Assembly: GCF_044704955.1 (NCBI RefSeq)
Contig: NC_092002.1
Coordinates: forward strand, 11,780,001-11,844,000
Origin: Pristiophorus japonicus
Lineage: Eukaryota
DNA: 64,000 nt
Direction of reading: 5' to 3'
The position numbers and the translations under genes were made by a program. The notes under the pieces were generated by a model. That model was not told where the DNA came from. It was given only the letters and a program-made list of their open reading frames with translations, and did not search any database. This document shows, piece after piece, positions 6,591 to 50,127 of the stretch. The number at the start of each line of letters is the position of its first letter. The stretch's first letter is position 1.

Positions 6591-7056
6591 TTTGTCCCTT
6601 CCAGCAAACATTCTGAAGCCTCAGCAAACTGGGGGAGAGAGGAGGCAGCCTGGAGTGAAATACTGTTGCTGTGGAATCCCGGGAGCCCCTGCCAATGTTT
6701 GCTGAGCTGAATGGATTGGGTTTTGCAGCCGAAAAACTTTGTGGAATGTCCTTCCCGACGGGAACTGGCTCGGTGCAAGAAAAATCACAAGAACAATTCG
6801 CTTTTTATGAACTCTAAGCATGGTAGTTAGGTGTGTTTATATCTTCTATACACGGAATCTAAATATTTCTCTAAATCTGAGGTTTTGAGTTGGATTTCAA
6901 AAGCTTGAAGTATTGAAGGTTTGTTTTTAAAAGGTTTCTTAGGATGTATTAGAATGAACCACACCGACAGCAACCCTCACACCTGGCCTTCCCATAAACA
7001 CATCACCTCTCGCTCACACTCTTTGTCAAACTTGGTACTGTGTTGGGAATGGCCAC

Positions 7057-7439
7057 ACACTCCCAGGGCAGGTACAGCACGGGTTAGATACAGAGTAAAG
7101 CTTCCTCTACACGGTCCCATCAAACACTCCCAGGGCAGGTACAGCACAGGTTAGATACAGAGTAAAGCTCCCTCTACACAGTCCCATCAAACACTCCCAG
7201 GGCAGGTACAGCACGGGGTTAGATATAGAGTAAAGCTCCCTCTACACTGTCCCATCAAACACTCCCAGGGCAGGTACAGCACGGGGTTAGATACAGAGTA
7301 AAACTCCCTCTACGCTATCCCATCAAACACTCCCAGGGCAGATACAGCACGGGGTTAGATACAGAGTAAAGCTCCCTCTACACTGTCCCATCAAATACTC
7401 CCAGGGCAGGTACAGCATGGGTTAGATACAGAGTAAAGC
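7057..7439. repeat. Tandem repeat, 67-68 bp unit, about 5.5 copies
   Basis: ACTCCCAGGGCAGGTACAGCACGGGGTTAGATACAGAGTAAAGCTCCCTCTACACTGTCCCATCAAAC recurs at 7193, 7261, 7329. Confidence 0.95.
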
Positions 7440-10900: not shown

Positions 10901-11499
10901 GGGTCAGTTTAAAAAAACGGGCTGATTAAATCAGCGGCAAACCAGGCCCAGTACACTGGGGTGGGAAAGGCTGGTGCTACTTTTCGGAGCGTACAGCCCA
11001 CTTGTACCCCTCCCCCTGCTGAACTTGCTGGTGCATCATTCCAGAGACTCCGTCCCATCACCGTGCAGGAACAGTGAGCAATGATAATCCCCATTAAGTA
11101 GTCCCTGCCCAACGCATCAGTCACCCTACAAAACTACTCCCAATAGGTTTATTCTACCGAGTCAGTGTGACTCTCTACTCCTACCTGAACATGTCTCGGT
11201 GTCAAGTACATGTACAGTACACAGGACTCCTGCCTGGTACTGTCACATTGTCAGCTCCTAGACTTGTACTGAGCACCGGGTAAAAGGGAACGATTCACTT
11301 CTGTCTGGTACTGTACAGCCAGTTCCTGTACATGTACAGTACACAGAACAATATACTCCTATCTGGTACTGTACAGCCCGTGTCTCATTGCCAGTTCCTG
11401 TACATGGACAGTGCACAGCAGGTAAAAGGGAATGACACACTCGTGACTGGTACTGTACAGCCCGTGTGTTTCACTGTGCCAGCTCCTGTATAGGCAGTG

Positions 11500-11850
11500 G
11501 CTCTTTTCCCTAGAAAAGAGACAACTGAGAGGTGATCTAATAGAGGTCTTTAATATTATGCAGAGGTTTGATAGGGTAGAGAGAGAGAAAATGTTTCCAC
11601 TTGTACAGAAGTCCTAATGTAGGGGCCATAATTATAAGATAGTCACTAATGAATCCAATAAAAAGAGTTCAGGAGAATCTTTACTTTAAGAGAGTGGAAC
11701 TTGCTACCACAGAGAGTGGGTGAGACGAATAGTATCGATGCGAGAAAGTACACGAGGGAGAAGGGAATAGAAGGATACGTTAATGGGGTTAGATGAAGGG
11801 TGGGGGGGACGCTTGTGTGGAGCATGAACACTGGCACAGACCTATTGGGT
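11500..11850 (+). mobile_element. Degraded CR1 3' fragment
   Basis: RRQLRGDLIEVF-like sequence and CR1 3'UTR similarity. Confidence 0.65.
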
Positions 11851-12038
11851 CTAATACATAAACAGGTCATTTGGCCCATCTCCCTGTTTAGGGTACAAGA
11901 CCCATCTCATTAACAGCAGCTTGAGATCCTGTGTTTCAAAGGCCAGACGGACCGGTCCAGCTCCGTAACCCTGTGAAGTACGAGAGCTCGGCGATAAATA
12001 AACACACACACACACACAGCGGGTTATAAAAAAAATTC

Positions 12039-12044
12039 TTTAAT
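12039..12044 (-). promoter_or_regulatory. SNRPA: SNRPA poly(A) signal ATTAAA
   Basis: ATTAAA 23 nt downstream of the PIE, followed by U-rich and (TG)n downstream elements. Confidence 0.8.
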
Positions 12045-12067
12045 TCTTCAGTTAGTTGAACAGGTTT

Positions 12068-12114
12068 GAAAGCTCCAGGTGCAATGTCGCGGAGACTCTG
12101 GGTGAAGAGCTTTC
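12068..12114 (-). promoter_or_regulatory. SNRPA: Polyadenylation inhibition element (PIE) of U1A mRNA
   Basis: GAAAGC-TCTTCAC-CCAG-A-GTC-TCCGC-GAC-ATTGCAC-CTGG-A-GCTTTC: PIE stem geometry with a perfect ATTGCAC box at 12079-12085. Confidence 0.85.
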
Positions 12115-12757
12115 TAACGGCGTGATAAAAGCCTCAGCCAGCCACATCCATTCACTCAACAACCGCAGCCAAACCCGGGGACTGCCAACTTTAAATAATG
12201 TAGCAGGAGCAGCGAGTAAAGTTCACCCAATTCCTCCAGGCAGGATAATCAGCTCCTGGACATCGTTCAAGGGGGGCAGGGGGGAATTATTCCGATTGGA
12301 CGTTCCCAGGGCTTGTGTTTCTTTTAAGCTGCACAGCTCCCTAGACCTCCCACGCAGTTCAACCCATATTTTGAATGGGCCGTGCACCCACCTCCCCCGC
12401 CAAAATACAAATAAACGGGAACATTGCCCTAGGCGGAATGGGGCAAGGAGAGGATACAACATCCACAGCACAATCTGAACAGAGCACACACCAACCCTCC
12501 CTCCCTCCCAAGCTCCCCTTGTTCGCACAGGGCCAGCGGGACGCTGCAGATCCGGTGAAGGGCGCGCCGGGAGATGGGAATGACCCTCTGAGGGGCAGGG
12601 TGAAGCCCAGGAGCCGCCTCACCCACTTACCTGAAGCATCAGAACTTTTAACTCTAATACACAAACCAGTCACTGAACTAATTAAAAAATAAAAACGCTG
12701 GGAACGGGCGTCGGAAAACAAAGCCGGAGTTAACCAGTTCGATCCTCCCGACCCCCA

Positions 12758-12946
<189 letters not shown>

Positions 12947-13249
12947 TCAGGGAGTGAGCGAGTGAGCAGGAGCGAGGGGGAGTGAGAAAGAGATAGAGAA
13001 ACACGGCTTACACAGAACCCAAAGCCAGTAAGTTTACTATCCCATGGCGAGTGCATATTGGACAAGGGGCACGTTCTATGCACACACCCCTGCAGTCCCT
13101 TCCTGGCCTATCCTCCCACTCCTGACTCCTAGAAAGTTGTGATTGACTCAAACAGCCCTTCAACTGAACCAGCTAAGTCCCTGAAGGAGTATGAGACTGT
13201 TCCCAGCAGCCAGACAGCTGAAGGCTACAGTGATCCAGTTGGAATGGAA

Positions 13250-13605
13250 CACAAAAATTAGGAGCAGGAGTCGGCCATACGGCCCCTCGAGCCTGCTCCA
13301 CCATTCAATAAGATCACAGCTGGTCTTCGACCTCAACTCCACTTTCCCGCCTAATCCCCATATCCGTTGATTCCCCGAGAGTCCAAAAATCTATCGATCT
13401 TCGCCTTGAATATATTGAGCATCCACAGCCCTCTGGGTCAAAGAATTCCAAAGACTCACCACCCTCTGAGTGAAGAAATTCCTCCTCATCTCAGTCCTAA
13501 ATGGCCGACCTTATCCTGGGACTGTGAGCCCTGGTTCTAGACTCTTCAGCCAGGGAGAATTATCCTACCTGCATCTACCCTCAGAATCTTATATATTTCA
13601 ATGAG
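13250..13605 (-). mobile_element. CR1 3' fragment
   Basis: Matches the CR1 3' ends elsewhere in the window. Confidence 0.8.
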
Positions 13606-13811
13606 AATGCACATTGTGCAGGAGGACACATCACCTCTCCAACACACTGGATGGCCAATCAGAGTGGAAGCACCATCACCCTGCCCCCAGCCCCAGTAAC
13701 TTCACTCGAGGCATTTGGCTCCCAGTCAAGAATATTCCTCCAAACCACACAGCCCAGGTAAACAGAGACAGGACCTGGAATATTCACCCACCGCCCCACA
13801 ATCTGTACTCA

Positions 13812-13922
<111 letters not shown>

Positions 13923-13974
13923 TTAACATCCCAGCACAAAGCAGGGCATCCCCTCTCCCACAGACAGACACTCT

Positions 13975-14560
13975 CCTCCTCAACAACCCCCCGTCCCCAC
14001 CTCCTCTCCTCCCCAACACACCACCCCCCTCAACACATACACCCACCGCCCCCTCTCCTCCACAACACCCCCCTCCCCAACACACACACACACACCCACC
14101 ACCCCCCTCAACACACACACCCACTGCCCCATCTCCTCCACAACACCACCCCCCTCCCCAACACACACACACACCCACCACCCCCCTCAACACACACACC
14201 CACCGCCCCCTCCCCTCCACAACACCCCCCCTCCCCAACACACACCCCCCTCCCCAACACACCCACCACCCCCCTCAACACACACACCCACCGCCCCTCT
14301 CCTCCACAACACCCCCCCCCCTCCCCAACACACACACCCACCACCCCCCCTCAACACACACACCCACCGCCCCCCTTCTCCTCCCCAACACACACCACTT
14401 CCCCCCCCCCCAACACACACACCTCCCTCTCCTTCCCAACACATACGCAGCCACCCCCTTCCCTCTCCAACACCGCCCCCCCCCCCAACCCTCCCTCTCC
14501 AACCCCCCCGACATACACCGCATGGAACCCCTCTGCCACCCCCCAGACACACACACCGCG
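13975..14560. repeat. C/A-rich low-complexity degenerate repeat (G-rich on the SNRPA sense strand)
   Basis: Repeated CCCCCCTCCCCAACACACAC motifs. Confidence 0.85.
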
Positions 14561-14765
14561 ATGCAATGAATGAGTCATACTCCAGGCTAATGGCTCCACT
14601 CTGAAAGCTACATCTCAAAGCTGCTGAATGCTCCAGCTCTGAACCCCTGCCGCACACAGCATGAATACCTCCTCCCCCACCCCCACCCCCACCCCCCCCC
14701 AATCCCGAGAGCAGCGAGGGCTCCGCGGCCGACTGCATCACCGCGCGCACCGACGGAACACTCAC

Positions 14766-14939
14766 CGGTTGAGCTGGGGGAGGCATCTGCCCAGGCATCA
14801 TCTGTCCGGGACCGAGGGAACTGGGCGGCATCTGGCCAGGCCCCATCCCCGGCGGTGGCATCATCCCAAGGGGCGGCATGTAGGGAGGCTGTCCCGGCAT
14901 CTGCATCATCCGCGGGGCCTGGTTCATCATGGGCATGCC
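14766..14939 (-). CDS. SNRPA: SNRPA coding exon 4 (Pro/Met-rich linker)
   Basis: cag|[20 protein letters not shown]...QMPPPAQP|gtgag, 174 nt, phase 0/0. Confidence 0.95.
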
Positions 14940-15689
14940 CTGCAACAGACAGCAGTGAATAAACGGCACCCTGGCTCACGGAACCGCTCACCCAAAGCTA
15001 CAAAACGGCTGAGAGCCATGAGTGATCACTTTACACCCCGAACAGCCAGACGGAAACTGAAAAAACTGTTACCATGGCAAAAAATCCAAAATACCACCCC
15101 CCCCCCCCCCCCCCACACAAATTCAGTGCAGCCGAGTCCTGCTGTTCTACGACGACCATTTAAACATCGCCGTTAATGTAGAAGCACCAGAGACACGCTC
15201 GGGAAACAAGGCAGCTCCCCAACCTGCGACAAGGCCAAAAGCAAGGTCAAAGGTGGGTCTTACGGGGTCAAAGAGCAGGGGACTGAGGTGGCTGAAGGCA
15301 CAGTTGCCCAATGGTGGTGTGAAGGGAGGCTTTGTTTTATCTCACCACCCCCTCACCCCCCGCCGCCAGGAGGAGGGGTGGGAAAGGAGGGCAGGCAGGG
15401 GGCAAGTGAAAATGTGCCAAACTCCACTGGCGTTTGGCCTGGCCTACAGCTCGAGCGCCTGTGGGGATGGTGAAACCAGCCACGAGAAGGCCAGCAGTTG
15501 AACTGGAGAATAATCACCAGCAGGGCAGAAGTTCAAATGCAACCATGAAACAGAGGGAGTTCTTGTCGATGGAAAGATCCAAATTAACCCCAAAGAGCCA
15601 GATGGGAATGTTCTTTAAAACCAGTTTAAAGTCGACTTTAAATCAAGCAAAAAAAAAAATTACAAAAACAATTTAGAAAGTGTTTACAC

Positions 15690-16085
15690 TTGCATTTATA
15701 TAGCGCCTTTCACGACCACCAGACATCTTAAAGCGCTTTGCAGCCAATGAAGTACTTTTGGAGTGCAGTCGCTGTTGTACTGTGGGAAACACAGCAGTCA
15801 ATTTGCGCACAGCAAGCTCCCACAAACAGCAATGCGACAATGACCCAGATAATCTGTTTTTGTTATGTTGGTTGAGGGATAAATATTGGCCCCAGGTCAC
15901 CAGGGAGAACTCCCCTGCTCTTCTTCGAAATAGTGTCACGGGATCTTTTACGTCCACCTGAGAGAGCAGACGGGGCCTCGGTTTAACGTCTCACCCGAAA
16001 GATGGCACCTCCGACAGTGCAGCACTGCACTGGGAGTGTCAGCCTGGATTTATGTGCTCAAGGACCTGGAGTGGGATTTGGAATA
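15690..16085 (-). mobile_element. Deu-domain tRNA SINE (SacSINE1/AmnSINE1-like); related copies near 18770-19175(-), 23050-23300(+), 33040-33460(+), 34010-34300(-), 36350-36860(-), 42795-43215(+), 55945-56405(-), 60300-60750(+), 60905-61360(-), 62105-62470(-)
   Basis: Shared core CACTGTCGGAGGTGCCGTCTTTCGGATGAGACGTTAAACCGAGGCCCC and tail AAGGCGCTATATAAATGCAAG; family name is from recall. Confidence 0.8.
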
Positions 16086-16374
16086 GGCTCTAAATGGCAG
16101 CACAGCAAGGGTCAACCAGAGGTAGCTGATCAAGCCCAGCGGCAATTCAAGCACTGCGTTTGGCATCACCGGAGAGGAGGTGGGGGGGAAGAGTTTGACA
16201 GAATCCCGAGCTGCCGGACTGCACCTTGCATGAAGACCGAGCCCACAGACCTCGCCCGAGACACGCGTCACTGTGACTAAAGGAAGGAAGCGGGTTACTC
16301 CAGTTCCAGTCAGTTGCTCACTTGCGCCCTGGCGCTATTTGCTGCATTGCCGGGCCGCCGGCGGGCACACTTAC

Positions 16375-16542
16375 CGAGACGTTAAGGGGCACGGCGTTGG
16401 CTGCCTGCGGGGCCGACACCTTCTTGTTGACCGAAGGCTCCGGGGCCTTGACCTTCCTCTTCTCCTTCTTCCGGTCACGCTCCACGTAGGTGCCCTTCAT
16501 CTTGGCGATGATGTCGGAATCTGACTTGGCGTACTGAATCCG
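16375..16542 (-). CDS. SNRPA: SNRPA coding exon 3
   Basis: cag|[30 protein letters not shown]...VPLNVS|gtaagt, 168 nt. Confidence 0.95.
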
Positions 16543-17193
16543 CTGTGGACAGGGATGAGGGGGGGGGGGGGGGGGCGGAAGAGGCGTCAAAGCGGTGAGA
16601 CACTGCAGGCCTGTTTGCGCAGGGGATTACCCCACGAGAGAGCGAGACACAATACATGAAACCCAGAGTCCAGGAGACCGGACTCGCCGGACCTCCGCCC
16701 ACTCACGCACGCAGTCAGACATTTTAAGTTGCTCTGGAGCCAAGAAAATCTACAAGAGAGGGTACAAGTTATACCAGTGAGGAAATGGGAACCAGCACTG
16801 GTTGGACTCTGACAGCTGGGATAAGGGCTTCATACCAGAGCCGAGACAATCATTAAATCTACCCGTAACTTTCTCTGGCCCAAGAACCTGCTGCGGCCAC
16901 ATGCAGCAGTTGAGGCAAATTGCCTTTAAGGGGGAAGCTAGATAAGTAGACGAGGGAGAAAATAGAAGGATATAGAGAGGAGATTTATCAGATGTTGCAA
17001 CTTTTAGCTGAGGAATGATTGGACAGGCTGGGGTTGATTTCTTTGGAACAGAGGAGGCTGAGGGGAGACCTTATTGAGGTGTATAAAATTATGAGGGGCC
17101 TGGATAGAGTGGATAGGAAGGACCTAGTTCCCTTAGCAGACGGGTCAACAACCAGGCGGCATAGATTGAAAGTAATTGGGGGGAGGTTTAGAG

Positions 17194-17495
17194 GGGATTA
17201 TTATTTGAATGGGGAGAAATTACAACATGCTGCGGTGCAGAGGGACCTGGGGGTCCTTGTGCATGAAACTCTTTTAGGAGTCTACCTGCAAAACATAAAC
17301 AACATTAAACTGTGCCACCCGACCTGGGTGACACAGCAGACATTTTCAATAGTCCCCCACTACCACAAATTCTGCAGTCGAGTATCCCGCATTTGGGGAC
17401 ATCGCAGGCGTCAGCACACCCGAAGTGCAATGGGCTAACCTCGTCCTGGGAGAACCACCTTCTTGATCATGGTTACTTCCCTGCCAGGTAAGTAT
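17194..17495 (-). mobile_element. SINEU-like chimeric retro-insertion: U1 snRNA head + Tx1-like 3' tail + 74 nt of CR1 target flank
   Basis: U1 at 17351-17495; tail 17268-17345 homologous to 48955-49030; 17194-17267 identical to 48881-48954. Confidence 0.8.
17351..17495 (-). ncRNA. U1 snRNA-derived sequence, nt 1-145, 3'-truncated (retrocopy or SINE head)
   Basis: ATACTTACCTGGCAGGG 5' end, SL1 loop GATCAAGAAG, SL2 loop ATTGCACTTC, Sm site AATTTGTGG, ends at GGGGGACT; lacks the 3' arm of SL4. Confidence 0.95.
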
Positions 17496-17778
17496 ATTTG
17501 AGGGGAAATGTCTTCACCTGGAACTCGCTGCCTGAAAGGGTGGTAGGGGCAGAAACCTTCACCACATTTAAAAAGTATTTGGATGTGCACCTGAAGTGCC
17601 GTAACCTGCAGGGCTACCGACAGAGCTGGAAAGTGGGATGAGGCTGGATAGCTCTGTCGGCCGGTGCGGACACGATGGGCCAAATGAGCTCCTTCCGTGC
17701 TGTAAATGTCTGTGATAGGCTGTATCACAATGGCCTGTCTGTGCTGTAAATTCCATGCAATTCTACGCACGCATTTCA

Positions 17779-18081
<303 letters not shown>

Positions 18082-18199
18082 TCAGCCTAAAGCAGCAGAC
18101 TCCAAAATCACTGCTCAGTTCTCATTCACTGGTGAAAGCCACAATTTAAGTTAATTAAATGTCCAGTAAATCGGGTTGACGGCAAATATTTTTTGCTCC

Positions 18200-18540
18200 G
18201 GATTGTGCCAGTCCTGCTCTCCATATTGCAAAGACAATATATAGAGGCACTGGAGAAGGTGAATGGAAGATTGACAAGAACGATACCAGAGCAGAGAGTT
18301 TATCCCCATCCGGAAAGACTGAACCGACTGGGGGCGCTTCTCTCCAGAAGAGAGAAGGCTGAGGGGTGACCCAATTGAGGTATTTAATATTATGAAGGAG
18401 TTTGATAGGGTAGACTTATGTTTCCAAATTGTTGGAGACTCCAAAACAAGGGGCCATAAATATATGATAGTCATTAATAAATCCAATAAAGAATTCAAGA
18501 GATTTCTTTACCCCAAGAGCGGTGAGAATGTGGAACTTAG
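18200..18540 (+). mobile_element. Degraded CR1 fragment
   Basis: RRLRGDPIEVFNIMKEFDRVD-like translation. Confidence 0.65.
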
Positions 18541-19403
18541 AAAAAGAAAAGCACCTTTCACGGCTACCGGATTTCCCAAAACACTTTACAGCCAGTATCA
18601 GCTGCAGTACTCTCTCTCGCCTGAGTCAGAAGGTCGTGGGTTCAAGTCCCACTCCAGGGACTCGAGCACAAAAATCTAGGCTGACACTCCCAGTGCAGTG
18701 TTTAATTGGTTGCAAAGCGTGTTGAAACGTCTGGTGGCACTATATAAATGCAAGTCTGTCTTTCCTTTCAATGAAGTACTTTTGGAGTGTAGTCACTGTT
18801 GTAATGTAGGAACCACGGCAGCCAATATGCACACAGCAAGCTCCCACAAACAGCAATGTGATAATGACCAGATAATCTGCTTTAGTGATGTTGATTGAAG
18901 GATAAATATTGGCCCCAGCATTCCAGGGAGAACTCCCCTACTCTTCATCTTCATCAAAATAGTGCCAAGGGATCTTTTACGTCCGCCTGAGAGCGCAGAC
19001 AGGGCCTCGGTTTAACGTCTCATTCAACAGACGGCACCTCCGACAGTGCAGCACTCCCTCAGCACTGCAGTGGGAGTGTCAATCTAAATTTTTGTGCTCA
19101 AGTCTCTGCAGTGGGACTCGAGACCACAACCTACTGGCTCAGGGGAGGGTGCTGCCCACTGGGTCACATCTGACAATCTTACTACCAAGGGGTAGCTAGA
19201 TAAATACACAAGGGAGAAAGGAATAGGTTATGTTGATGGGGTGAGATGAAGTGGGGTGGGAGGAGGCTCGCGTGGAGCATAAACACCGGCACGGACCAGG
19301 TGGCTTCCTTGCTGTAAAATTCGACACGATTCTATGCAACCCCCGTTTTCAAATGCTACCAGCTTCCAGTCAACGCAACACAGCTTCTCCTCTGAACAGT
19401 TAC

Positions 19404-19476
19404 CATCCTTTTTGATCTTCTCATTCAGATTGTTAATGTAGATGGTGTGATTTGGACGGGTCTCTTGGCCAGACAT
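19404..19476 (-). CDS. SNRPA: SNRPA first coding exon
   Basis: MSGQETRPNHTIYINNLNEKIKKD(E)|gtaac; an acceptor 15 nt upstream of the ATG implies a non-coding exon upstream. Confidence 0.96.
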
Positions 19477-19685
19477 ACTTCTTCGCCGTAGCTGAAAAAA
19501 ACAAAACGAGGAGAGAAAAAAAAACACAATGAAAGTCACAGCCTGATAGCAGCCCTCTTCACTGCCGGAGAAAATGTAACAAGGGTCAGTCACTCTAGTA
19601 AGGGTTATCGTCACGGTACTGAACTTACACGACCCCGAGCTCAGGAATTCAAATCCAACCACAACAAGCAGTGAAATTCAGTTCA

Positions 19686-19973
19686 GACACCTGGGAGTCC
19701 CTGGCCGAAGACCACCCTAAATGGAGGAAGTACATCCGGGAGGGCGCTGAGCACCTCGAGTCTCAACACCAAGAGCATGCAGAAATCAAGCGCAGGCAGC
19801 GGAAGGAGCGTGCGGCAAACCAGACTCCCCACCCACCCTTTTCTTCAACCACTGTCTGTCCCACCCGTGACAGGGACTGTGGCTCCCATATTGGACTGTT
19901 CAGCCACCCAAGGACTCATGTTTAGAGTGGAAGCAAGTCTTCCTCGATTCCAAGGCACTGCCTATGATGATGA
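19686..19973 (+). mobile_element. RTE-clade LINE 3' fragment
   Basis: TWESLAEDHPKWRK...VCPTRDRDCGSHIGLFSH C-terminal zinc-finger remnant; (GAT)n tail. Confidence 0.75.
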
Positions 19974-20169
19974 TCAGTTCAGTCCTGGATAAAAATCACC
20001 TGTAATACTCGATGGGGTCACCGACACCCTTCAGGGAACCCAACACCCACATGACTGAACGCCCCGTTCCAGCACCAACCCCCATCCCATAGGGAACAGC
20101 AAGAGATGAGGGCTCGCTCAGGGGAGGGCTGGGGCAGCTGGTGCCTCCATACCCGGCCCACTTACAGTC

Positions 20170-20470
20170 CGACCCCGGGAATGGGGCAACCCAAACCCTC
20201 TCTCTTCCCCACCCACCCCAGGAATGGGGCAACCCACTGTCTCTCTCCCCGTCCTGCCCTAGTGGAATGGGGCAACCACCCCCCCTTCAACCAACCCCGG
20301 GAATGAGGCAACCCACCGTCTCTCTCCTACCCCCTAGTGGAATGGGGCAACCCACCTACCCCCGCTAAACCACAGGAATGGGGCAACCTACCGTCTCTCT
20401 CTTCCCGCCCGAGTGGAATGGGGCAGCCCACCTCCCCCATTAGGAATGGGGCAGCCCAACAGCCCCCGCC
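20170..20470. repeat. Degenerate tandem repeat with GGAATGGGGCAACCC core
   Basis: Core recurs about 8 times at roughly 40-bp spacing. Confidence 0.7.
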
Positions 20471-20499
20471 CCCACACTGAGAATGGAGCAGCCTTCGAG

Positions 20500-21080
20500 C
20501 CCGCGGATGGCCGTCTGAGGCCCGCTCCCCACATACCGGTAAGGCGGCGGCGGCGGCTCCCCGGGCGCGGATCGCGGCGCAATATAGGCCACCCCAAGCT
20601 GGGAGGCCCGAGGTGGAACCGCCCGGCCCGCTGTGGGCCGCCGATGTCGCCGCGCACTCACCGATGGACACGGATTGTCCCGGAGACCCGACCGACCGAC
20701 AAACCACCCGCCCGCGCCGCCGCCGGATGTCCCGGCCCCGCTCCATCCTGATTGGTCCGCTGTCACCGAGCCACTTACCGATTGGCTGTTTCAACTGTCA
20801 ATCGCCTAGGGCGAGAAAGGCGCTAATTGAAGACCGTTTCTTTAAAGCGATGGAGCGGACGATTGGCCTTCCTCACAGGCCACCCACCCGACAGTGTTTT
20901 ATATCTAACACCGCCCCTCGGGCAGGGCTCAGAACTGATTGGTTGATGAACCCGATGCGCCGCCTTAATTGGCGGGTGTAGATGTCAATCAAAGACAATG
21001 ACCAATCACAGTGGGGCGGCAATCACCGAATGGCCCAGCGCAGGGGGCGGGTTCCAATAGTGACCCCGTGACCCCAAGCA
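20500..21080. promoter_or_regulatory. CpG-rich bidirectional promoter between SNRPA and ACTMAP; probable SNRPA non-coding exon 1 ending at 20662
   Basis: CpG-dense; ATTGG/CCAAT boxes near 20751, 20781, 20862, 20938, 21002; GC boxes; minus-strand donor gtgag at 20661. Confidence 0.75.
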
Positions 21081-28094: not shown

Positions 28095-30890
28095 AAGAGG
28101 AATGGTCGACTGGAAGGCTGTTTCCAGTGGGGTTCCGCAGGGCTCAGTACTAGGTCCCTCGCTTTTTGTGTTATATATCCATGATTTAGACTTCAATGTA
28201 GGGGACATGATTAAGAAGTTTGCAGATGATACAAAAATTGGCCGTGTGGTTGATAATGAAAAAGAAAGCTGCAGACTGCAGGAAGAGATCAATGGACTGG
28301 TCAGGTGGGCAGAACAGTGGCAAATGGAATTCAATCCCGAGTAGTGTGAGTTAATGCATCTGGGGAGGTCTAACAAGGCGAGGGAATTAACAGTCGGACT
28401 CGGGTGAATTTATAATGGGGAACAAAGAAATGGCAGACCAATTGAACAAATACTTTGGTTCTGTCTTCACGAAGGAAGACACAAATAACCTTCGGGATGT
28501 ACTAGGGGACCGAGGGTCTAGTGAGAAGGAGGAACTGAAGGATATCTTTTATTAGGTGGGAAATTGTGTAGGGGAAATTGATGGGATTGAAGGCCGATAA
28601 ATCCCCGGGGCCTGATTGTCTGCATCCCAGAGTACTTAAGGAAGTGGCCCTAGAAATAGTGGATGCATTGGTGATCATTTTTCAACAGTCTATCGACTCT
28701 GGATCAGTTCCTATGGACTGGAGGGTTGCTAATGTAACACCACCTTTTTAAAAAAAGGAGGGAGAGAAAATGGGTAATTATAGACCGGTTAGCCTGACAT
28801 CAGTAGTGGGGAAAATGTTGGAATCAATTATTAAGGATGAAATAGCAGTACATTTGGAAAGTAGTGACAGGATCGGTCCAAGTCAGCATGGATTTATGAA
28901 GGGGAAATCATGCTTGACAAATCTGGAATTTTTTGAGGATGTAACTAGCAGAGTGGACAAGGGAGAACCAGTGGATGTGGTGTATTTGGACTTTCAAAAG
29001 GCCTTTGACAAGGTCTCACACAAGAGATTGGTGTGTAAAATCAAAGCACATGGTATTGGGGGTAATGTACTGGCGTAGATAGAGAATTCGTTGGCAGACA
29101 GGAAGCAGAGAGTCGGGATAAACGGGTCCTTTTCGGAATGGGAGGCAGTGACTAGTGGAGTGCCGCAGGGCTCAGTGCTGGGACCCCAGCTCTTTACAAT
29201 ATACATTAATGATTTGGGTGAAGGAATTGAGTGTAATATCCAAGTTTGCAGATGACACTAAACTGGGTGGCGGTGTGAGCTGTGAGGAGGACGCTAAGAG
29301 GCTGCAGGGTGACTTGGACAGGTTAGGTGAGTGGGCAAATGCATGGCAGATGCAGTATAATGTGGATAAATCTGAGGTTATCCACTTTGGTGGCAAAAAC
29401 ACGAAGGTAGAATACTATCTGAATGGCGGCAGATTAGGAAAAGGGGAGGTGCAACGGACCTGGGTGTCATGGTTCATCAGTCATTGAAAGTTGGCATGCA
29501 GGTATAGCAGGCGGTGAAGAAGGCAAATGGCATGTTGGCCTTCATAGCTAGGGGATTTGAGTATAGGAGCAGGGAGGTCTTACTGCAGTTGTACAGGGCC
29601 TTGGTGAGGCCCCACCTGGAATATTGTGTTCAGTTTTGGTCTCCTAATCTGAGGAAGGACGTTCTTGCTATTGAGGGAGTGCATCGAAGGTTCACCAGAC
29701 TGATTCCCGGGATGGCTGGACTGACATATGAGGAGAGACTGGATCAACTGGGCCTTTATACACTGGAGTTTAGAAGGATGAGAGGAGATCTCATAGAAAC
29801 GTATAAGATTCTGACGGGACGGGACAGGTTAGATGCGGGAAGAATGTTCCCGATGTTGGGGAAGTCCTTAGGATAAGGGGTAGGCCATTTAGAACTGAGA
29901 TGAGGAGAAACTTCTTCACTCAGAGAGTTGTTAACCTGTGGAATTCCCTGCCGCAGAGAGTTGTTGATGCCAGTTCATTGGATATATTCCGGAGGGAGTT
30001 AGATATGGCCCTTATGGCTAAAGGGATCAAAGGGTATGGAGAGAAAGCAGGAAAGGGGTCCTGAGGTTGAATGATCAGCCATGATCTTATTGAATGGTGG
30101 TGCAGGCTCGAAGGGCCGAATGGCCTACTCCTGCACCTATTTTCTATGTTTTTATTAACAATAAATGGTAGGACACTGGGAAGTGTAGAGGAACAAAGAG
30201 ACCTTGGAGTGCATGGCCACAGATCCCTGGAGATAGCATGACGGGTAGATAAGGTGGTTAGGAAGTCATATGGAATACTTACCTTTATCAGCCAAGGCAT
30301 AGAATATAAGAGCAGGGGGTGGGGTTATGCTTGAACTGTATAAAACACTGGTTAGGCCACAGCTGGAGTACTGTGTGCAGTTCTGGTCACCACATTACAG
30401 GAAAGATGTGATTGCACTAGAGAGGGTGCAGAGGGGTTTTACGAGGTTGTTGCCTGGACTGGAGAATTTTAACTACAAGATTGGATAGGCTGGGGTTGTT
30501 TTCTTTGGAACAGAGGAGGCTGAGGGAAGACTTTATTGAGGTGTATAAAATTATGAGGGGCCTTGATAGAGTGGATAGGAAGGACCTATTTCCCTTAGTA
30601 GAGGGGTCAACAACTAGGGGGCATAGATTTAAAGTAATAGAGGGGATTTGAGGAGACATGTTTTCCACCCAGAGGGTGGTGGGTGTCTGGGACTCACTGC
30701 CTGAAAGGGTAGTAGAGGCAGAAACCTTCACCACATTTAAAAAATATTTGGATGTGCACTTGAAGTGCTGTAACCCACAGGGCTACGGACCGAGAGCTGG
30801 AAAGTGGGATTAGGCTGGATAGCTCTTTGTCGGCCGGCGCAGACACGATGGGCCGAATGGCGGCCTCCTGTGCTGTAATTTTCTATGGTT
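28095..30890 (+). mobile_element. Nested CR1 LINEs: younger copy 28393-30153 inserted in an older CR1-clade copy
   Basis: RT motifs GVPQGS and KFADD; TSD ATTAACA at 28386-28392 and 30154-30160. Confidence 0.9.
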
Positions 30891-46374: not shown

Positions 46375-49300
46375 ATGCTAGTCAGAGTAGGAATCGCAGG
46401 ATAGCTCAGATGAATACGTGGCTTGAGCAGTGGTGCAGCAGGGAGGGATTCAAATTCCTGGGGCATTGGAACTGGTTCTGGGGGAGGTGGGACCAGTACA
46501 AACCGGACGGTCTGCACCTGGGCAGGACCTGAACCAATGTCCTAGGGGGAATGTTTGCTAGTGCTGTTGGGGAGGAGTTAAACTAATATGGCAGGAGGAT
46601 GGGAATCAATGCAGGGAGACAGAGGGAAACAAAAAGGAGACAAAAGCAAAAGACAGAAAGGATTGGAGGGCAGAGAAACCCAAGGCAAGAAACAAAAAGG
46701 GCCACTGAATGTAAAGGGGCTGCAGGAGGGGTCAAAACTAAAAATCATGGTTTAAAAACTAGTATTAAAACACTCTACCTAAATGCATGTAGCATTCGAA
46801 ATAAAGTAAATGAGTTGACAGCACAAATCATTGCAAATGGGTATGATTTGGTGGCCATTACAGAAATGTGGTTGCAGGGGGGCCAAGACTGGGAATTAAA
46901 CATACAGGGGTATCTGACGATTCAGAAAGATAGACAAGGGAAAGGAGGTGGGGTAGCTCTGTTAATAAGGGATGATATCAGGGCAGTTGTGAGAGACGAT
47001 ATTGGCTCTAATGAACAAAATGTTGAATCATTGTGGGTGGAGATTAGAGATAGTAAGGGGAAAAAGTCACTGGTGGGCGTAGTTTATAGGCCCCCAAATA
47101 ATAACTTCACGGTGGGGCGGGCAATAATCAAGGGAATAATGGAGGCATGTGAAAAAGGATTGGCAGTAATCATGGGGGATTGTAACCTACATATCGATTG
47201 GTCAAATCAAATCGCACGGGGTAGCCTTGAGGAGGAATTCATAGAATGCATACGGGATTGTTTCTTAGAACAGTATGTTACAGAACCTACAAAGGAGCAA
47301 GCTATCTTAGATCTGGTCCTGTGTAATGAGACAGGAATAATAAACGATCTCCTAGTAAAAGATCCTCTCGGAATGAGTGATCACAGTATGGTTGAATTTG
47401 TAATACAGATTGGGGTGAGAAAGTAGTGTCTCAAACGAGCGTACTATGCTTAAACAAAGGGGACTACAGTGGGATGAGGGCAGAGTTGGCTAAAGTAGAC
47501 TGGAAACACAGACTAAATGGTGGCACAATTGAGGAACAGTGGAGGACTTTTAAGGAGCTCTTCCATAGTGCTCAACAAAAATATATTCCAGTGAAAAAGA
47601 AGGGCGGTTAATGAAGGGATAACCAAGGAAATAAAGGAGAGTATCAAATTAAAAACCAATGCGTATAAGGTGGCCAAGGTTAGTGGGAAAATAGAAGATT
47701 GGGAAAATTTTAAACGACAGCAAAGAATGACTAAGAAAGCAATAAAGAAAGGAAAGATAGATTACGAAGGTAAACTTGCGCAAAACATAAAAACGGATAG
47801 TAAAAGCTTTTACAGATATATAAAACGGAAAAGAGTGACTAAAGTAAATATTGGTCCCTTAGAAGATGAGAAGGGGGATTTAATAATGGGAAATGTGGAA
47901 ATGGCTGAGACCTTAAACAATTATTTTGCTTCAGTCTTCACAGTGGAAGACACAGAAACCATGCCAGAAATTGCTGGTCACAGGAATGTGGGAAGGGAGG
48001 ACCTTGAGACAATCACTATCACTAGGGGGGTAGTGCTGGACAGGCTAATGGGACTCAAGGTAGACAAGTCTCCTGGTCCTGATGAAATGCATCCCAGGGT
48101 ATTAAAAGAGATGGCGGAAGTTAGAGCAGATGCATTCGTTATAATCTACCAAAATTCTCTGGACTCTGGGGAGGTACCAGCGGATTGGAAAGCAGCTAAT
48201 GTAACGCCTCTGTTTAAAAAAGGGGGCAGACAAAAGGCAGGTAACTATAGGCCGATTAGTTTAACATCTGTAGTGGGGAAAATGCTTGAAACTATCATTA
48301 AGGAAGAAATAGCGGGACATCTAGATAGGAATAGTGCAATCAAGCAGATGCAGCATGGATTCATGAAGGGGAAATCATGTTTAACTAATTTACTGGAATT
48401 CTTTGAGGATATAACGAGCATGGTGGATAGAGGTGTACCGATGGATGTTGTGTATTTAGATTTTCAAAAGGCATTCGATAAGGTGCCACACAAAAGGTTA
48501 CTGCAGAAGATAAAGGTATGTGGAGTCAGTGGAAATGTATTAGCATGGATAGAGAATTGGCTGGCTAACAGAAAGCAGAGAGTCGGGATAAATGGGTCCT
48601 TTTCAGGTTGGAAATCGGTGGTTAATGGTGTGCCACAGCGATCGGTGCTGGGACCACAACTGTTTACAATATACATAGATGACCTGGAAGAGGGAACAGA
48701 GTGTAGTGTAACAAAATTTGCAGATGACACAAAGATTAGTGGGAAAGCTGGTTGTGTAGAGGACACAGAGAGGCTGCAAAGAGATTTAGATAGGTTAAGC
48801 GAATGGGCTAAGGTTTGGCAGATGGAATACAATGACGGAAAGTGTGAGGTCATCCACCTTGGGGAAAAAAAACAATAAAAGGGATTATTATTTGAATGGG
48901 GAGAAATTACAACATGCTGCGGTGCAGAGGGACCTGGGGGTCCTTGTGCATGAAACTCTTTTGAGTTTATCTGTGAAAACATAAAACATTAAACGGTGCC
49001 ACCCGACCTGGGTGACACTCCAGACATTTACAAGGCCCTTTTTTTTTCCCCCTTTTTTGTGTTTTTTTTTTGTGTTTTTTTTTTTTTTTTTTTTGTTTTT
49101 TTTTTGGGCACTAAAATCACAATTTTTCCCCAGTGCCCCCTATAAAAGGGAAGGGGACACTAAAAGCACCGGCAATTAAAACAAATTAACTTTAAAACGT
49201 AAAATCAAATTAAAATTTGGTTGCCGGGCGTGATGATGCACTCCAGTCCCTCCGGTGCCCACCTCTTCCTTGTGCATGAATCCCAAAAAGTTAGTTTGCA

Positions 49301-49972
49301 GGTGCAACAGGTAATCAGGAAGGCGAATGGAATGTTGGCCTTCATTGCGAGAGGGATGGAGTACAAAATTGGGAGGTCCTTCTGCAACTGTACAGGGTAT
49401 TGGTGAGGCCGCACCTGGAGTACTGCGTGCAGTTTTGGTCACCTTACTTAAGGAAGGATATACTAGCTTTGGACGGGGTACAGAGACGATTCACTAGGCT
49501 GATTCCGGAGATGAGCGGGTTACCTTATGATGATAGATTGAGTAGACTGGGTCTTTACTCGGAGTTCAGAAGGATGAGGGGTGATCTTATAGAAACATTT
49601 AAAATAATGAAAGGGATGAGAAGATAGAGGCAGAGAGGTTGTTTCCACTGGTCGGGGAGACTAGAACTAGGGGGCACAGCCTCAAAATACGGGGAAGCCA
49701 ATTTAAAACCGAGTTGAGAAGGAATTTCTTCTCCCAGAGGGTTGTGAATCTGTGGAATCCTCTGCCCAAGGAAGCAGTTGAGGCTAGCTCATTGAATGTA
49801 TGCAAGTCACAGATAGATAGATTTTTAACCAATAGGGAATTAAGGGTTATAGGGAGCGAGCGGGTAAGTGGAGCTGAGTCCACGGCCAGATCAGCCATGA
49901 TCTTGTTGAATGGCGGAGCAGGCTCGAGGGGCTAGATGGCCTACTCCTGTTCCTAATTCTTATGTTCTTATG
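46375..49972 (+). mobile_element. Relatively young CR1 LINE: end of ORF1 esterase plus near-complete frameshifted ORF2, interrupted by a Tx1-like insertion
   Basis: YKPDGLHL (ORF1); ORFs 46599-47426 (APE) and 47670-48878 (RT, KFADD); (TTCTTATG)n tail. Confidence 0.95.
48955..49266 (-). mobile_element. 5'-truncated Tx1-like (L1 clade) non-LTR element inserted antisense in CR1 ORF2
   Basis: 14-bp TSD TCCTTGTGCATGAA (48941-48954, 49267-49280); ORF end RWAPEGLECIITPGNQILI* resembles Tx1 ORF2 C-termini (recall); A-rich 3'UTR and terminal stem-loop. Confidence 0.75.
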
Positions 49973-50127
49973 AATCAATTCAGTCATGCCTATCCTCCCG
50001 TAGCACATCCGTCAGGCTCAATTTTCCCTCCTGAGGTGTCTCTCTGTGCTTGTCTGTACTGCAGCTATGCAATAGATTCACCCCCGCCCCCCGCATCATT
50101 CACATTACTAAGCACCATCCAATTACA

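Follow-up and report, generated by a model that had tools for sequence, protein, structure and literature searches.

A probable one-off chimera of U1 snRNA and the 3′ end of a CR1-targeting Tx1-clade LINE within a U1A gene

The insert at 17194..17495 of the window (the whole 64-kb stretch of DNA that was analysed) is probably a single-copy chimera, in which nt 1-145 of U1 snRNA, the 82-nt tail of a Tx1 LINE and a CR1 flank of about 70 nt were put together in one reverse-transcription event. The earlier note had proposed a three-tier system, with a CR1 host, a Tx1 LINE that targets it and a U1-headed passenger. The CR1-like host and the CR1-targeting Tx1 both stand, and U1 was joined to this LINE repeatedly (at six loci), but a SINE family as the third tier is not supported; that tier is a set of one-off chimeras rather than a self-propagating passenger.

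We analysed the composition of the insert, all parts of which read on the minus strand. As can be seen from the Rfam match (RF00003, 121 bits, E 5e-30, running from 17495), its head is U1 snRNA, with nt 1-145 at 17351..17495. This part has three mismatches (G18A, C58T, A124G) to 18 of the 29 U1 gene loci that we fetched, and four differences to the remaining 11. Whereas the gene loci extend through stem-loop 4 and are preceded by upstream sequence of their own, the insert shows neither feature and ends at nt 145. It keeps the exact 5′ end, the 5′ splice-site arm, stem-loops 1-3, the U1A-binding loop included, and the Sm site, breaks off within stem-loop 4 and lacks the upstream promoter. The head was thus as the earlier note had described it. 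The U1 part is followed by a single A (17350), which belongs neither to U1, whose genes continue with G, nor to the LINE, whose copies have C, and which is likely an untemplated base gained at the jump.

The next 82 nt (17268..17349) form the very end of the 3′ UTR in the Tx1-clade LINE, including its hairpin and its end AAAAGAGT. Each of the 39 other loci that were scored matches them at 100%, and in all 29 fetched loci the sequence upstream of them was the LINE's own A-rich UTR, so the tail of the insert is not distinct from an abundant LINE 3′ end (identical in 29/29 fetched). After AAAAGAGT the insert passes directly, with no poly(A) tail, into a carried-over 3′ target flank (17194..17267), 68-74 nt of CR1 ORF2 in antisense (17267 to 17194-17200) that opens with the 14-nt target and whose last 6 nt (17199-17194) are common to the host element. 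CR1 target sequence is present on this 3′ side only. Tail and flank together aligned to 48881-49033 with 145 of 157 identities (92%), in agreement with the earlier observation that an approximately 80-nt tail is homologous to the insertion at 48955-49266, that hairpin and end are shared by both and that both meet CR1 at the same base.

The element that the insert interrupts is of a different CR1-like family. Its left part (17496..17716, minus strand) is 87% identical to 2481-2684 and its right part (17008..17199, minus strand) 93% identical to 2722-2914; the family sequence split here (17716-17496 and 17199-17008) is unbroken in the intact window copies at 2481-2914 and 30479-30887. Since the two host halves flank the whole unit, U1, tail and target flank entered together, at a non-target site. 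At the junction 0-3 bp are duplicated, no host bases are lost, and there is a 6-nt microhomology on the 3′ side. We could not find the 14-bp target-site duplication at the insert, only these 0-3 bp, which goes against the expectation that the insert would be flanked by a duplicated target. Truncated LINE 5′ junctions often show short microhomology, and the 6-nt match resembles one; a 17-nt deletion also lies 22 nt upstream of the insert. It could therefore be argued that the locus arose in two steps, with a 5′-truncated target CR1 already nested in the host CR1, the chimera inserted into it, and a later loss of about 700 nt next to U1. Since the host is continuous across the unit, however, such a deletion would have needed one end precisely at U1 nt 1 and the other precisely at the former insertion boundary; we regard this history as very unlikely. 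Self-comparison of the window also revealed tandem repeats with a period of ~60-70 bp at 1-1007 and 7054-7439.

The related insertion at 48955..49266 (minus strand) is a 5′-truncated copy of the same Tx1 group but of a slightly different subfamily, comprising the end of ORF2 and the 3′ UTR at the canonical CR1 site. It was correctly described before, including its 14-bp target-site duplication (48941..48954, plus strand, with the second copy at 49267-49280). The possibility that it represents a short non-autonomous family was ruled out, as 29 of 29 other fetched loci extend upstream into ORF2. The element it sits in (47802..49979, plus strand; ORF2 and 3′ end, recognised by translation and by RVT_1 look-alikes) we provisionally assign to CR1, from sequence motifs. 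The Tx1 site in it lies directly past the reverse transcriptase core, within the RT-coding ORF, in antisense orientation.

The full Tx1 unit is ~7.2 kb long, and ORF1 (699 aa) and ORF2 (1299 aa) were open in both copies examined. Pfam matched ORF2 to Exo_endo_phos (APE endonuclease) and RVT_1, and its C-terminus to zf-RVT below the cut-off; Pfam gave no match for ORF1, where a CCHC knuckle was identified by eye. ORF2 is identical to Xenopus Tx1L (UniRef YTX2) at 642 of 1297 positions (49%) over the full length, the best named full-length match, and the most similar ORF2 fragments (69-70%) came from a ray and a shark, hinting, together with genome size and repeat content, at a cartilaginous fish. 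The domain content and the Tx1L match support the assignment of the parent LINE to the Tx1 clade, as the earlier note had proposed for the tail.

The 5.92-Gb genome contains 9,182 exact tail hairpins and 15,664 exact 3′ junctions of the LINE end with the CR1 target (genome-wide pattern). The 14-nt target, with up to two mismatches, followed 55 of 60 sampled hairpin ends, which were the first hairpin places listed, chosen regardless of target, and include tandem neighbours and three segmental duplicates. Of six distinct ordinary truncated copies whose 5′ junction could be seen, five had duplications of 14-15 bp. The elements have no terminal poly(A), and copies form head-to-tail arrays of 7.2-kb units, because the duplication recreates the target. 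Judged from its copies, the parent LINE is a young, two-ORF, site-specific and tandem-forming element. Like Tx1L of Xenopus laevis, which inserts into Tx1D (PMC4494074, PMC6719617), it targets another transposon; unlike Tx1L, it uses an antisense site in the RT ORF of a CR1-like element, duplicates 14-15 bp there, and has built up head-to-tail arrays and at least 15,664 junctions. We found no CR1-targeting Tx1 in the literature; Repbase and Dfam lie outside this comparison, and a CR1 target may be listed in supplementary data of PMC4494074. At L063, the 5′ ends of full-length Tx1 copies contain a region of short AGCAGTG/AGCTGTG repeats, which varies among array neighbours more than ORF2 does. 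Three loci considered as 3′ transductions (L155-157) were rejected, as their common downstream sequence marks them as duplicates.

We searched the genome for sister copies of the insert. A pattern of the U1 Sm-site region, up to 30 nt and the hairpin had a single match genome-wide, the insert at 17194..17495 itself, and not the many copies with a shared U1/tail junction that would have been expected of a family. Likewise, no match anywhere in the genome placed a U1 5′ end immediately behind a complete target duplication. A search with the whole element returned only itself and U1 genes among the 40 of 1,020 candidates that were scored, a result uninformative on sister copies. A census of exact U1 5′ 20-mers without a preceding C (a condition that drops most genes and roughly one in four retrocopies) yielded 15 places, four of them U1-Tx1 fusions. 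A search that took the CR1 flank as its anchor yielded five places with U1, of which two were new fusions. In the resulting six fusions U1 ends at nt 143, 145, 153, 156, 157 and 164, and the matching Tx1-side pieces are 12, 83, 18, 1030, 9 and 13 nt long. Six is a lower bound, as exact patterns miss diverged copies. Diverged or 5′-truncated sister copies of the insert could likewise have escaped, and a source copy may be absent from the assembly.

All six fusions start at U1 nt 1 without gene flank, a sign of an RNA template, even though nt 1 also served as the anchor of the searches. In five of five fusions at the CR1 site a Tx1 3′ remnant is kept between U1 and the target, indicating that synthesis began on Tx1 RNA. 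Four of these five have duplications of only 0-2 bp, well short of the 14-15 bp in most ordinary truncated copies and matching the 0-3 bp at the insert, and one (L148, at the target) has 10 bp. The criterion offered in PMC4494074 for telling a chimera from a SINE is the existence of an abundant LINE with the same 3′ end, together with variable junctions. All six U1-Tx1 junctions differ, which on the earlier note's own test speaks against a SINE family, and the parent LINE is abundant; by this criterion the fusions are a sum of independent chimeras, and from their structure they are likely to have formed by template jumping.

The insert might nevertheless belong to, or descend from, a U1-headed SINE family of low copy number that is moved by the CR1-targeting Tx1. 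A U1 head with a LINE tail and hairpin is the classic SINE layout, the carried flank would be expected from read-through of an on-target master, and the five on-target fusions have the U1 variant C44T in common. The insert lacks C44T, however, and the variant is present in 4 of 29 U1 gene loci, so that genes can supply it. The single junction match, the six different junctions and the absence of U1 ends right after a full duplication, as well as the criterion of PMC4494074, all go against such a family, which we consider highly improbable.

At 17 places examined for the base before U1 nt 1, this nucleotide was preceded by AT in 7 (at L112 clearly beyond the duplication) and by G in 7, counts that are conditioned by the exclusion of a preceding C from the search (the loci include L102, L106, L107, L111, L112, L114 and L149). 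They may stem from slippage over the first two bases and from a copied cap. At L110:1348-1900 a U6 match lies upstream of a short U1 piece, in which the 5′ end is joined to the stem-loop 2 loop; a repeat follows this U1 piece.

The structure of the insert is best accommodated by a jump of the Tx1 enzyme from a read-through Tx1 RNA onto U1 snRNA. In this scenario a Tx1 copy would have been transcribed beyond its own 3′ end into the CR1 flank, giving the presumed read-through RNA. A nick or break in a different CR1 family would then have primed synthesis off target through the 6-nt microhomology. Having copied about 155 nt, the enzyme would have added one A and switched to U1 at nt 145; synthesis would have reached U1 nt 1, and the end would have been joined almost blunt. 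Targeted integration can be reinforced when target sequence is transcribed along with the element (PMC4494074), and template-switch chimeras as well as U1 heads on Tx1 have been described (PMC4494074 and PMC4476161). The copy was likely dead on arrival, since it lacks the upstream snRNA promoter. Against this scenario, a second clear carry-over of 3′ flank to a non-target site was not seen among the 60 sampled ends, many of whose 5′ ends lie beyond the 1.5 kb fetched. The ordinary off-target copies at L163 and L174 have a TTCA start and a 14-15-bp duplication; because these are lacking at the site of the insert, its nicking step is unexplained.

A cleavage and ligation model exists for mammalian U6/L1 chimeras. 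By analogy, U1 and a Tx1 RNA fragment could have been cleaved and ligated as RNA before reverse transcription, with the rest proceeding as in template jumping. All six U1 ends fall within nt 143-164, the exposed 3′ stem-loop region, and the Tx1 remnants are mostly very short, both in favour of ligation. The extra bases at several junctions (one A in the insert, runs of A in others) fit untemplated addition at a jump instead. Sequence alone does not separate template jumping from RNA ligation, and we regard ligation as unlikely.

A jump from Tx1 RNA onto U1 would make the insert comparable to known snRNA/LINE chimeras. Like those of Doucet et al. 2015 (PMC4476161), it has the snRNA 5′ and a 5′-truncated LINE 3′ in the same orientation, with a junction of its own, and like their U5 chimeras its snRNA is 3′-truncated. 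In human chimeras the partner is nearly always U6 or U6atac, with no U1/L1 chimera among 33 human U1 copies in that paper, whereas here it is U1 at six loci. For U2 and U6 heads, one anchored search gave only the SINEU-like copy at L215 discussed below. The insert is unlike the chimeras of PMC4476161 in that it carries target flank and has no duplication. The lacking duplication lowers the case for a textbook chimera, not for an element that works like one.

The second system to compare is SINEU-1, -2 and -3 and Tx1-Mar of crocodilians (Kojima 2015, PMC4494074), where, as here, U1 occurs repeatedly at 5′ ends and the Tx1 machinery prefers another transposon as its target. The targets named in PMC4494074 are Mariner-N4, LTR elements, Harbinger and microsatellites, whereas the target here is a LINE ORF. 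The insert itself is unlike SINEU: it occurs in one copy, lacks poly(A) and ends 3′ in the same sequence as an abundant LINE.

The U1 census also brought up, at L103, L108 and L112, a separate family that closely matches SINEU as presented in PMC4494074, being a mosaic with poly(A), duplications and fresh U1 additions (the last in the copies at L103 and L108). Its copies (for example L123:1466-1815 and L103:1502-1830, with further loci in L116-L145) are ~350 nt long and consist of the U2 5′ end, a U1 5′ piece, the U2 3′ part, a second U2 piece, a tail of their own and poly(A). An exact 30-mer spanning a junction matched 1,984 times genome-wide and nowhere within the 64-kb window, and 39 other scored loci had 97-98% identity. 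The U2 head scored 57-62 bits (cut-off 46 bits) in all four copies scanned; the U1 piece, at 23 bits, was below cut-off and matched by BLAST at 84% over 50 nt. Direct repeats of at least 8 nt were found in 18 of 30 copies, after two element-internal matches had been dropped, and 6 of 30 stood in tandem with another copy. By head, copy number, size (<500 bp), poly(A) and duplications, it would qualify as a young family of the SINEU kind. SINEU was not found outside crocodilians according to PMC4494074, and we found no report of it outside crocodilians, sharks included, in the literature, with Repbase and Dfam outside the comparison.

None of 30 sampled copies of this family lies at the CR1 site, its tail is not shared with the CR1-targeting Tx1, and none of the fetched loci contains a LINE ending in that tail. 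At L215 (near 167649972), a SINEU-like copy is present at the CR1 site, its poly(A) separated from the target by the final 9 nt of Tx1; judged from this arrangement, the Tx1 enzyme likely jumped once onto SINEU-like RNA. Decayed LINEs of another L1/Tx1-like group, whose 5′ ends start with U1 and U2 pieces as in Tx1-Mar, were seen at L105/L151 and L113/L152. Those at L105 and L113 were rejected; they have ~30% identity to the CR1-targeting ORF2, and the SINEU-like tail is absent from them. A second short type, at L112:1502-1810, consists of U1 nt 1-44 and an almost complete U2 (125 bits), followed by a related tail with poly(A); it resembles SINEU-2, and the two types lie in tandem within a minisatellite. 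At L014, L025 and L026 a truncated SINEU-like copy lies in CR1 sequence ~1.3 kb from U1 genes, apparently within a duplicated U1 unit.

Chimeras, SINEU and transposon-targeting Tx1 elements are all kinds already known. We put at about even the chance that what is seen here is an undescribed LINE-on-LINE Tx1 parasite (with a site in CR1 ORF2, more than 15,000 insertions, and arrays) that has captured U1 repeatedly and a SINE RNA once, accompanied, outside crocodilians, by a young family of the SINEU type with some 2,000 copies, so that raw chimeras would stand beside a finished SINEU. A Tx1 aimed at the coding region of a dominant LINE would be a retrotransposon that exploits and disables another as a safe harbour, and the intact ORF2 and the 14-nt target make its specificity directly testable. 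The six U1 captures are a likely first step toward SINEU. A young SINEU-like family of near-identical copies outside crocodilians would make testable the questions that PMC4494074 leaves open, namely the origin of SINEU, its transcription without an internal promoter and its mobilising agent.

The insert lies in sense orientation in a 1,326-nt intron (17868-16543) of the gene for U1A (SNRPA), 374 nt downstream of the exon donor. The second coding exon (17869..18041, minus strand) matches the PDB U1A chains at 56 of 57 residues, and scores 109 bits to U1A against 84 bits to U2B″. Other exons, placed by short motifs, are presumably at ~19476, 16542, 13886 and 12874. We calculated the chance of landing in the 7.4-kb U1A gene as 2e-5 for 15-17 copies and 1e-3 for 1,020, a post hoc figure drawn from a very large scan; the position is probably due to chance.

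It could also be asked if the insert was retained or favoured because its U1A-binding loop and its complement to the 5′ splice site tune U1A autoregulation or the splicing of the intron. This concerns retention and not origin, and is compatible with a template-jump chimera. Besides the sense orientation and the low chance estimate, the insert has an intact ATTGCAC (the U1A-binding loop) at 17431, one of two such motifs on the minus strand in 11000-20500, and U1A autoregulates through such motifs in its own 3′ UTR (PMC5071671). However, the known autoregulation needs two sites beside the poly(A) signal (PMC5071671), and the insert is >5 kb upstream. The argument is also post hoc, from a very large scan; the insert is young, with a tail identical to an active subfamily; and in the predicted fold of the head or of the whole insert the native loop would be only partly formed. 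We find such retention quite unlikely, and similarly doubt that the insert placed a working (putative) U1A-binding site in U1A's own pre-mRNA. The other ATTGCAC, at 12085 on the minus strand, is past the U1A stop and ~40 nt upstream of an ATTAAA signal (12044), and is a candidate autoregulatory element.
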